A stretch of 64,000 nt of DNA from Bacillota bacterium. GTDB lineage: Bacteria; Bacillota; Clostridia; Peptostreptococcales; Anaerovoracaceae. Made by a program: the position numbers and the translations under genes. Positions 23,755 through 23,954 of this stretch are shown here, piece by piece. The stretch lies in contig JAFRIQ010000036.1 in the NCBI GenBank assembly GCA_017432725.1, positions 761 through 64,760 on the forward strand, read 5' to 3'. Below the pieces are notes generated by a model that saw only the letters and a list, made by a program, of their open reading frames with translations, ran no database searches and was not told where the DNA came from. Every line of letters begins with the position of its first letter. Position 1 is the first letter of the stretch.

Positions 23755-23790
23755 ATAAAAAACGGTTCTGCCCGAAAACAGAACCGTTCA
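23755..23790 (-). terminator. Intrinsic terminator inside the 5' leader of the ABC operon (candidate attenuator A)
   Basis: On the minus strand: GAACGGTTCTG-TTTTCGGG-CAGAACCGTT followed by TTTTAT, about 80 nt upstream of the SBP start codon. Confidence 0.65.
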
Positions 23791-23840
23791 ATATTTACTT
23801 AAGCGACAACTATTTTCTTATCAATTACCTCTATTGCATT

Positions 23841-23915
23841 TTAACGTCCGCTAAAGCCGAAGCCGTAGCGGTAGCTAAAAGCGAAATAGAAGTTGTTGAA
23901 AGAAACGTTTTTCAT
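23841..23915 (-). CDS. 24-codon Phe/Tyr-rich upstream ORF (candidate leader peptide A)
   Basis: It encodes MKNVSFNNFYFAFSYRYGFGFSGR*. It is collinear with uORF B at 12 of 24 identical residues. One conserved Ser is encoded AGC here and TCC in B. There is no SD sequence, and the ATG lies 11 nt after the putative -10. Confidence 0.5.
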   Translation of the reverse strand: MKNVSFNNFYFAFSYRYGFGFSGR

Positions 23916-23926
23916 AATTACAGTAT

Positions 23927-23954
23927 ATTTTACTCGTTTAAGTCCTTTTGTCAA
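23927..23954 (-). promoter_or_regulatory. Putative promoter A
   Basis: On the minus strand: TTGACA (23954-23949), 16-nt spacer, TAAAAT (23932-23927). Confidence 0.5.

Follow-up and report, generated by a model that had tools for sequence, protein, structure and literature searches.

Candidate tyrosine- and phenylalanine-sensing leader-peptide attenuators upstream of tyrosine-type ABC importers in Clostridia

In the classical leader-peptide attenuators, such as pheL-pheA of Escherichia coli (RF01859), trpL, and hisL, a short open reading frame (ORF) rich in cognate codons overlaps the 5' arm of a hairpin, and a terminator precedes the controlled genes. We are aware of no described leader peptide that senses tyrosine, and such a case would be new beside the textbook attenuators. 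Gram-positive examples include the His leaders of Bacillus hisS/hisZ (PMC2965389) and an upstream ORF (uORF) of Corynebacterium ilvB (PMC10272879), and leader-peptide systems were thought to be absent from Firmicutes apart from the His leader reported in the former study (PMC2965389). Transporters of the trpXYZ type, with PF04392 substrate-binding proteins (SBPs), have been described with T-box leaders, e.g., Streptococcus suis TrpX (PMC9382623). Also relevant is the trpB motif (RF04312), an orphan RNA with >900 representatives, rated a strong riboswitch candidate, that occurs in 5' untranslated regions of Firmicutes, most often before an uncharacterized amino-acid-type ATP-binding cassette (ABC) transporter, and for which Narunsky et al. 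(2024) could not exclude a classical attenuator (PMC11109978). Here we describe a leader, designated A, in a stretch of 64,000 nucleotides (nt) from an Anaerovoracaceae bacterium (contig JAFRIQ010000036.1; the whole stretch is hereafter called the window), in which a Phe/Tyr-rich uORF, a long hairpin, and a terminator precede a PF04392-type ABC importer operon. A paralogous leader, B, precedes the gene for a second binding protein. We interpret leader A as a classical ribosome-mediated (leader-peptide) transcription attenuator sensing the supply of Tyr/Phe-tRNA and put the probability of this reading at about three in four. An earlier note on this DNA, made from the sequence alone, had likewise suggested a Tyr/Phe-responsive attenuator on an aromatic amino acid importer; comparative analysis supports it through a recurrent uORF-terminator layout, Phe/Tyr exchanges, and a binding pocket of the type found in Clostridioides difficile CD0873.

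Like pheL, trpL, and hisL, the leader combines a short cognate-codon-rich ORF overlapping a hairpin 5' arm with a terminator before the genes, and its candidate antiterminator shares nucleotides with both structures, as in the classical cases. Like PheL, some members of the family have Phe runs split by Ala, and the uORF of one locus (L051) contains YFFFAFFF, which we take to resemble the E. coli peptide. Unlike the classical systems, to which they are not related in sequence, leaders A and B control an importer rather than a biosynthetic operon, are rich in Tyr codons, occur in Clostridia, where T-boxes are the usual solution, form a pair of paralogs with different Phe/Tyr codon sets, and belong to a 24-codon subtype that lacks a Shine-Dalgarno (SD) site and would be near-leaderless. 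Relative to known attenuators, the distinguishing features are the predicted Tyr/Phe sensing, the control of a transporter, the spread in Clostridia, the presumably near-leaderless subtype, and the paired leaders with different codon sets. With the T-box leaders of TrpX, leaders A and B share the transporter family and, if read correctly, the relief of termination when the cognate tRNA is uncharged, but sensing would proceed via a translating ribosome and not by direct binding of the tRNA.

Rfam searches at gathering scores across the whole window and 18 related loci, together with searches of leaders A and B at E values up to 10, returned only tRNAs and chance-level matches (Phe_leader, 16.3 bits; PyrR, 27 bits). 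Phe_leader (RF01859) was rejected as an assignment since its score compares with a gathering score of 55 and corresponds to an E value of 4.5. A T-box was likewise rejected, with no Rfam match and no match to a T-box regular expression in 80 upstream regions, as was the trpB motif (gathering score, 59) for A and B, which gave no match at E values up to 10; none was recovered at the gathering score in the 18 related loci. In the literature, of which an incomplete library was searched, we found no description of a Tyr/Phe leader for these transporters or of the regulation of CD0873-CD0875.

The components of leader A and its operon, all on the minus strand, are as follows.

23927 to 23954: promoter A, with a -35 box TTGACA (23954-23949), a 16-nt spacer, and a -10 box TAAAAT (23932-23927); promoter score 11/12.
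23841 to 23915: uORF A, 24 codons encoding MKNVSFNNFYFAFSYRYGFGFSGR before the stop codon; 6 Phe and 3 Tyr.
23805 to 23913: long hairpin P1 (RNAfold), whose 5' arm is uORF codons 1 to 17 and whose 3' arm is the end of the uORF and 36 nt beyond its stop.
23905 to 23896 with 23824 to 23814: P1 base helix, UUUCUUUCAA paired with UUGAUAAGAAA.
23848 to 23871: apical hairpin CCGCUACGGC-UUCG-GCUUUAGCGG, within uORF A.
23803 to 23817: candidate antiterminator 5' strand GAAAAUAG-UU-GUCGC, with the partner ACGGU-U-CUGUUUUC (23787-23774).
23754 to 23789: intrinsic terminator A, GAACGGUUCUG...CAGAACCGUUC and a U-run; stem 23789-23760.
22718 to 23677: SBP-A, a substrate-binding lipoprotein (PF04392) whose pocket is of the CD0873-like (tyrosine) type; start at 23677, SD site upstream.
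22682 to 21783: permease, PF02653, same operon as SBP-A.
21790 to 21038: ATPase, PF00005, same operon as SBP-A; permease and ATPase together span 21038 to 22682.

The minus-strand coordinates agree with the layout that the earlier note had read from the sequence. Its TTGACA-16-TAAAAT promoter is followed, 11 nt past the -10 box, by the ATG of the uORF (23915); nine of the 24 codons are indeed Phe or Tyr; the hairpin that it placed within the uORF lies at 23871-23848; and the terminator that it put about 50 nt further on, ahead of the ribosome-binding site and the binding-protein gene, has its stem beginning 54 nt past the stop codon. The hairpin of the note is, however, only the tip of the long P1, which the note did not mention. 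At this tip, the Arg codon CGC of the apical hairpin pairs with the GCGG of Ser-Gly, so that Tyr/Phe codons are enclosed. These features are unlikely to have arisen by chance: an ATG-initiated ORF of at least 15 amino acids (aa) with as many Phe and Tyr codons occurred in 2 of 3,000 dinucleotide shuffles of region A and 89 of 3,000 of region B, and the folding z-scores against shuffles were -7.05 and -6.54, respectively. No other Phe/Tyr-rich uORF with a terminator occurs elsewhere in the 64-kb window.

To recover homologous loci, we scanned one genome per species with both binding proteins, which gave 80 loci, and metagenomes, which gave 80 more; look-ups of close homologs supplied further ones. 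The nearest relative in the species scan was an Anaerovoracaceae metagenome-assembled genome (MAG) with 81% identity, and one locus from the metagenome scan was 98% identical. When the uORF was defined as an ATG-initiated ORF of <110 codons with at least 5 Phe, Tyr, or Trp within 10 consecutive residues, 107 of the 164 loci with at least 300 nt of upstream sequence had a Phe/Tyr-rich uORF upstream of the binding-protein gene, compared with 16 of 164 on the opposite strand of the same DNA. The statement of the earlier note that such control is uncommon in Firmicutes holds for the phylum as seen in the literature (PMC2965389) but not for this transporter family, in which it is the commonest arrangement. 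A mode of amino acid control regarded as rare in Firmicutes, where T-boxes dominate, here appears to be how an entire family of transporters is mainly regulated in anaerobes that abound in the gut.

The promoter, ORF, and terminator of leader A form a complete minimal transcription unit, and such a unit could in principle produce an independent micropeptide on a short transcript of its own, the binding-protein gene being served by a separate promoter. We consider this highly improbable: the stretch from terminator A to the start of SBP-A contains no promoter-like site, the unit always directly precedes a PF04392 gene in the same orientation (>100 loci), and the peptides are not conserved outside their aromatic core. 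The invariable union with the transporter leader and the same lack of conservation led us to reject a micropeptide or a precursor of a ribosomally synthesized and posttranslationally modified peptide.

The uORFs fall into many classes of 17 to 70 codons (e.g., MDRKNQTFSFYMITGMARFYFAGYYFGVQKSEQCGC, MKNMKLSHRGLYYAYYSRYYFAGYFSCASSCPG, ...AVRFIFAQLFFGIFGFGFTPMPI, ...ALRFYFFVFFFTRFPICKNCS, and MLSRYSFFIFAFRFAGRYFGTPSRSRR), and most relatives outside the 24-codon class have a strong SD site, e.g., GGAAAGGAG. In 35 of 37 representative leaders, an intrinsic terminator lies 15 to 60 nt past the stop codon, with the binding-protein gene 24 to 260 nt beyond the terminator. The classes share a peptide core in which aromatic residues and an Ala or Thr are followed by a short spacer, an Arg, and more aromatic residues, often with Ala-Gly. 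It approximates [FL]YY-A-Y..R-[FY]-[FY], such that KLYYAYSYRY of leader B is nearly the same as GLYYAYYSRYY of L072; Trp is almost absent from the leader peptides. The covariance model of the 24-codon class reaches the other classes at no more than 38 bits, which does not establish homology at the RNA level, and the link between classes is formed by the peptide core and the architecture. An analog of the CGC...GCG(G) hairpin is seen in distant classes, and L015 shows one apparent compensatory change in it (AGA with GCU). The switch logic is clearer in other classes than in the 24-codon class: the Arg-Phe-Tyr-Phe-Ala codons of L037 and L045 pair with GUGCAGAAAAGUG, and the adjoining GAACAG pairs with the terminator arm CUGUUC. 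By simple criteria, no terminator was found in several metagenomic classes (L085, L088, the L109-L149 class, L150, and L152); these may use another read-out, such as translational control, or have a terminator that the scan missed. The class represented by MLSRYSFFIFAFRFAGRYFGTPSRSRR, which is very common in the human gut, is among those with no terminator by these criteria.

The core invites a different explanation, namely, an arrest peptide of the TnaC, SecM, or Erm-leader type, its conserved Arg flanked by aromatic residues, that stalls the ribosome on free Tyr/Phe or another small molecule instead of on uncharged tRNA, possibly with the opposite regulatory sense, i.e., induction by substrate. 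Nonaromatic residues are conserved over distant classes, with Ala and Gly flanking the aromatic residues, and the Arg is retained through CGC, CGA, CGU, and AGA codons, i.e., in both codon families, which argues for some role at the peptide level. The Ser at codon 14 of the 24-codon class is likewise kept through a codon-family switch, and induction of an importer by its substrate would be plausible for a host that, judging from its Anaerovoracaceae affiliation, is probably an amino acid fermenter. However, peptide length (17 to 70 aa) and sequence outside the aromatic core are highly variable, Phe and Tyr interchange freely, and runs such as YYYYY and FFFAFFF are typical of starvation-sensing leaders. 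Moreover, the Arg, Ala, and Gly codons also build the CGC...GCG(G) hairpin, and the compensatory change in L015 offers an RNA-level reason for their retention. We therefore regard an arrest peptide as unlikely, and prefer the sensing of Tyr/Phe-tRNA supply.

The predicted cargo matches the leader codons. The best match of SBP-A in the Protein Data Bank, although distant, is the Tyr-bound CD0873 of C. difficile (6HNI; 157.9 bits; E = 3.8e-45), with Trp-bound Streptococcus pneumoniae SP1069 (3LFT) and Phe-bound Vibrio cholerae VC_1101 (3LKV) as other solved relatives. The Tyr specificity of CD0873 is attributed to Glu-263, which is Ala in the Phe and Trp binders and hydrogen-bonds the Tyr hydroxyl, and to Tyr-279, which is Gln in the Trp binder and excludes Trp (PMC6816091). 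E247 and Y263 of SBP-A align with these two residues, SBP-B has the same residues, and all 164 homologs retain the Glu/Tyr pair (GE...Y), so that the importer is predicted to be of the tyrosine type. Since all 164 are of this type, no correlation between the Phe/Tyr content of the leader and the specificity residues of the binding protein could be obtained. Besides the similar pocket, each of the two organisms has a second paralogous binding protein, of approximately 70% identity, whereas the binding protein comes first in the operon here and the permease comes first in C. difficile. The transporter family includes a colonization factor and vaccine candidate, CD0873, that is tied to p-cresol production.

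Leader B, which has the same layout as leader A, provides the internal comparison. Its components, all on the minus strand, are the following.

26395 to 26599: leader B, with its promoter at 26599-26572.
26562 to 26488: uORF B, 24 codons encoding MKNENLSKLYYAYSYRYSRSYSGV before the stop codon; 6 Tyr and no Phe.
26555 to 26457: P1 of leader B.
26470 to 26464: candidate antiterminator strand AAACAGA.
26429 to 26402: terminator of leader B, followed by a U-run.
25418 to 26377: SBP-B, a second PF04392 binding protein.

SBP-B shares 71% identity with SBP-A and lacks a permease or ATPase of its own, and the covariance model of the 24-codon class scores leader B at 120 bits. The two uORFs are of identical length, as had been noted earlier, but share 11 rather than 12 of their 24 residues. 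Three further observations made then on this pair recur in the family or on recounting: aromatic positions swap almost only between Phe and Tyr across variants, the conserved Ser (codon 14) is AGC in A and TCC in B, and hairpin positions that are C.U and G.U in A are U-A and A-U in B. The class as a whole comprises 16 variants, ten of the A type and six of the B type, three of the latter (in L001, L082, and L083) coming from the covariance model built on alignment A4, which contains 13 sequences. A-type leaders precede the binding protein, permease, and ATPase genes, and B-type leaders precede an extra binding-protein gene just upstream. All 16 have TTGACA, a 16- to 17-nt spacer, and a TAnAAT-like -10 box, and all keep the uORF at 24 to 27 codons with a fixed ATG. 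The promoter spacer has fully diverged while the uORF is nearly invariant; the hexamers and the terminator are also conserved in relatives. Within the uORF, no residues other than Phe and Tyr occur at codons 11, 13, 17, and 21; Ala-12, Tyr-15, Arg-16, and Gly-23 never vary; and codon 14 is Ser (AGC, TCC, or TCT) except in three sequences, where it is Thr (ACT). Phe is missing from all six B-type variants, which have 6 to 8 Tyr, and all ten A-type variants have 4 to 6 Phe and 3 to 5 Tyr. This split between TTY and TAY codons, maintained across genomes, has no obvious RNA-structural reason and is as amino-acid-specific sensing would predict.

We envisage that transcription begins a few nucleotides before the AUG of the 24-codon uORF. 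With no ribosome, or after a ribosome has finished and gone, the leader would fold into P1, the base of which ties up AAGAAAAUAG; the downstream terminator would then form, and transcription would end before the binding-protein gene. When charged tRNA-Phe or tRNA-Tyr is scarce, a ribosome would stall at the Phe/Tyr codons in the 5' arm of P1 and free its right shoulder to pair with the 5' arm and loop of the terminator as an antiterminator, and RNA polymerase would read through into the genes of the tyrosine-type ABC importer. The sequences show the anatomy and its conservation, the codon bias, the terminators, and the residues of a Tyr-type pocket; that the uORF is translated, that ribosomes stall on it, which helix is the antiterminator, and in which sense regulation runs are inferred from them. 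P1 is proposed to act as an anti-antiterminator and possibly as a pause hairpin. Leader A would govern SBP-A, the permease, and the ATPase in response to the supply of Phe and Tyr, and leader B the extra SBP-B in response to Tyr alone. The A and B units thus probably respond to different amino acids, and the codon sets suggest that the core transporter and its accessory binding protein would be tuned separately. The Tyr-only and Phe+Tyr pair offers a natural test of codon-specific sensing.

Folding the leader with and without the uORF masked, a check proposed in the earlier note, yielded P1 and, under masking, the candidate antiterminator. In alignment A4, the pairs of P1 and the terminator occupy paired states in 84.4% of cells compared with 37 to 51% in slid controls, and two-sided changes affect 11 pairs (6 of P1 and 5 of the terminator); in the terminator, A-type leaders differ from B-type leaders by compensatory changes. 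In the apical hairpin, the four closing pairs (C-G/G-C) are invariant or change from C-G to U-G. A block, AAGAAAAUAGUUGUCGC, downstream of P1 is conserved, and the spacer that follows it varies in length and sequence. For a transcript that ends at the terminator loop and has its uORF masked, RNAfold and RNAalifold alike predict pairing of GAAAAUAG (23817-23810) with CUGUUUUC (23781-23774) and of GUCGC with RCGGU, so that the partner of the candidate antiterminator is the 5' arm and loop of the terminator; the B-type counterpart is AAACAGA paired with UCUGUUU. Paired cells amount to 83.9%, against 35 to 51% in slid controls. The 5' strand overlaps the base helix of P1 (UUUCUU/AAGAAA) by GAAA, so that the antiterminator would be released by a ribosome occupying the P1 5' arm. 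Applied to the 13 leaders together, RNAalifold finds nothing beyond the apical hairpin and the terminator and misses the P1 base and the antiterminator, whose registers are not the same in the A and B types. When the modeled logic, in which the partner of the terminator 5' arm is freed by a stalled ribosome, was compared with shuffles (22 leaders, 40 shuffles), the summed value was 123.4 compared with a shuffle mean of 81.3 and a maximum of 109.6. The earlier note had seen no convincing antiterminator by eye; a candidate is now at hand in the right shoulder of P1, though it is weak on its own in shuffles.

Several observations weigh against ribosome-mediated attenuation. First, the ATG lies 9 to 11 nt past the -10 box with no SD site in 16 of 16 leaders of the Anaerovoracaceae type. 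The usual distance from the -10 box to the transcription start site puts the mRNA start approximately 2 to 5 nt before the AUG, so that the uORF would be near-leaderless; if it is translated, this arrangement bears on ribosome-RNA polymerase coupling in Gram-positive bacteria. Second, the variable columns are spread evenly over the codon positions (12, 14, and 14), and L165 has, close to the 3' end, an insertion of 1 nt that alters the frame yet retains the RNA sequence. RNA-level constraint is thus at least as strong as peptide-level constraint, which is expected if the coding region also forms a regulatory structure. Third, most changes in the candidate antiterminator affect a single side (UA to CG or to UG, facing G and U), with only the closing pair covarying (C-G, U-A, or C.A), and the helix is weak (approximately -9 kcal/mol), comparable to the 2:3 helix of trp. 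It also forms in truncated-transcript folds with no modeled ribosome, and in the stalled-ribosome shuffle test the single leaders are not significant (8/40 for A and 5/40 for B); energies by themselves thus do not demonstrate a switch. Finally, the antiterminator strand lies at least 24 nt past the stop codon, where a terminating ribosome would not cover it, and the off state would hence depend on the refolding kinetics of P1.

The even spread of variation, the absent SD site, and the retained RNA sequence of L165 would also suit a structured RNA sensor of the trpB-motif type, be it a riboswitch or a protein-binding RNA, in which P1 binds a ligand or protein, its right shoulder is the antiterminator, and the ORF is incidental or exists only in other lineages. 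The fold is very stable (z about -7), and P1 with an antiterminator shoulder and a terminator is the architecture of the orphan trpB motif, mostly found before amino-acid-type ABC transporters (PMC11109978). Such a sensor, however, leaves unexplained why the ORF and its fixed ATG persist throughout 16 variants, why its aromatic positions exchange almost only Phe and Tyr, and why a Tyr-only (B) versus Phe+Tyr (A) split with no RNA-structural rationale exists. Homologous peptide cores recur in SD-bearing uORFs of unrelated RNA sequence, the peptide motif persisting where the class covariance model gives no more than 38 bits, and the trpB model does not match A or B at E values up to 10. An RNA sensor of this kind is therefore improbable, about as much so as an arrest peptide, and we retain ribosome-mediated attenuation.

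The trpB motif is nonetheless the closest described RNA to leaders A and B, with which it shares a P1 hairpin having the antiterminator in its right shoulder and an intrinsic terminator thereafter. Two CD0873-family leaders of Clostridioides connect it with uORFs. In L178, an SD-bearing uORF, MNTLLNNKKYYYYYSHYF (1376-1432), is followed by a trpB match at 1451-1579 (44.3 bits), and in L177, an SD-bearing uORF, MKTLLNKQVRFFSSQFS (3933-3986), is followed by one at 4018-4154 (36.4 bits), both matches being below the gathering score of 59. The operons of these leaders start with the permease gene, and their terminators follow the trpB-like match. While the uORF lies within P1 in leaders A and B, the Clostridioides uORFs end approximately 20 to 30 nt before the trpB-like P1. 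That both matches directly follow SD-bearing uORFs suggests, without proving it, that the trpB motif forms the RNA part of an attenuator of this same kind, and the link offers a direct and cheap test for an orphan riboswitch candidate with so many representatives. Taken jointly, the data tentatively point, at somewhat less than even odds, to a large, apparently undescribed family of Tyr/Phe attenuators on CD0873-type tyrosine importers of gut and rumen Clostridia, with a near-leaderless subtype in Anaerovoracaceae, a Tyr-only and Phe+Tyr pair that splits the control of two binding proteins sharing one permease and ATPase, and Clostridioides members that coincide with the trpB motif, which would then represent, in part at least, the RNA side of a ribosome-mediated attenuator and not a riboswitch that binds a ligand.

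Between terminator A and the SD site of SBP-A lies a second conserved element.

23691 to 23727, minus strand: GGAUCCCGC-GUAC-GCGGCAA-N-GCGGGACCC.

Its consensus is YCCCGC-N4-6-GCGGCAA-N6-10-GCGGGA, in which CCCGC has two alternative partners, the nearer GCGG and the more distant GCGGG. The element occurs in most A-type relatives (L081, L082, L083, L164, and L165), with variants in L162, L169, and L001; it is absent from B-type leaders, L161, and L167, and has no Rfam match. It may serve translation-level control or be a stability element.

Two neighboring genes lie on the minus strand. A URO-D-like gene (PF01208; 390 aa; window 24152-25324) with its own promoter lies between SBP-B and leader A, accompanied by a terminator and promoter at 25400-25361. 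It looks like an insertion, since the B and A units are directly tandem with no such gene between them in L001, L082, and L083; the insertion is common to L084 and L174 to L176. Directly upstream of leader B is a gene for an Xre-type helix-turn-helix protein (168 aa; window 26624-27130), also a neighbor in L171, L174, L175, and probably L163, which could be an additional regulator of the SBP-B unit.

The leaders themselves also vary among loci. In the Anaerovoracaceae MAG locus L001 (2379-2550), a B-type leader with a Tyr-only uORF, MKNAVLNNLYYAYSYRYGYSYNGC, has an antiterminator block and terminator of the A type (AAGAAAAUGGUUGUCGC and ACGGUCCUGUUUUC), a combination in the sequence that suggests gene conversion between the paralogous A and B leaders. 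Some relatives have two or three PF04392 binding-protein genes in tandem (L172:1-1666, L173, L164:1-331, and L167:1-379); in L172 and L173, the second of these follows the first with no leader between them, and the number of leaders per locus thus varies.

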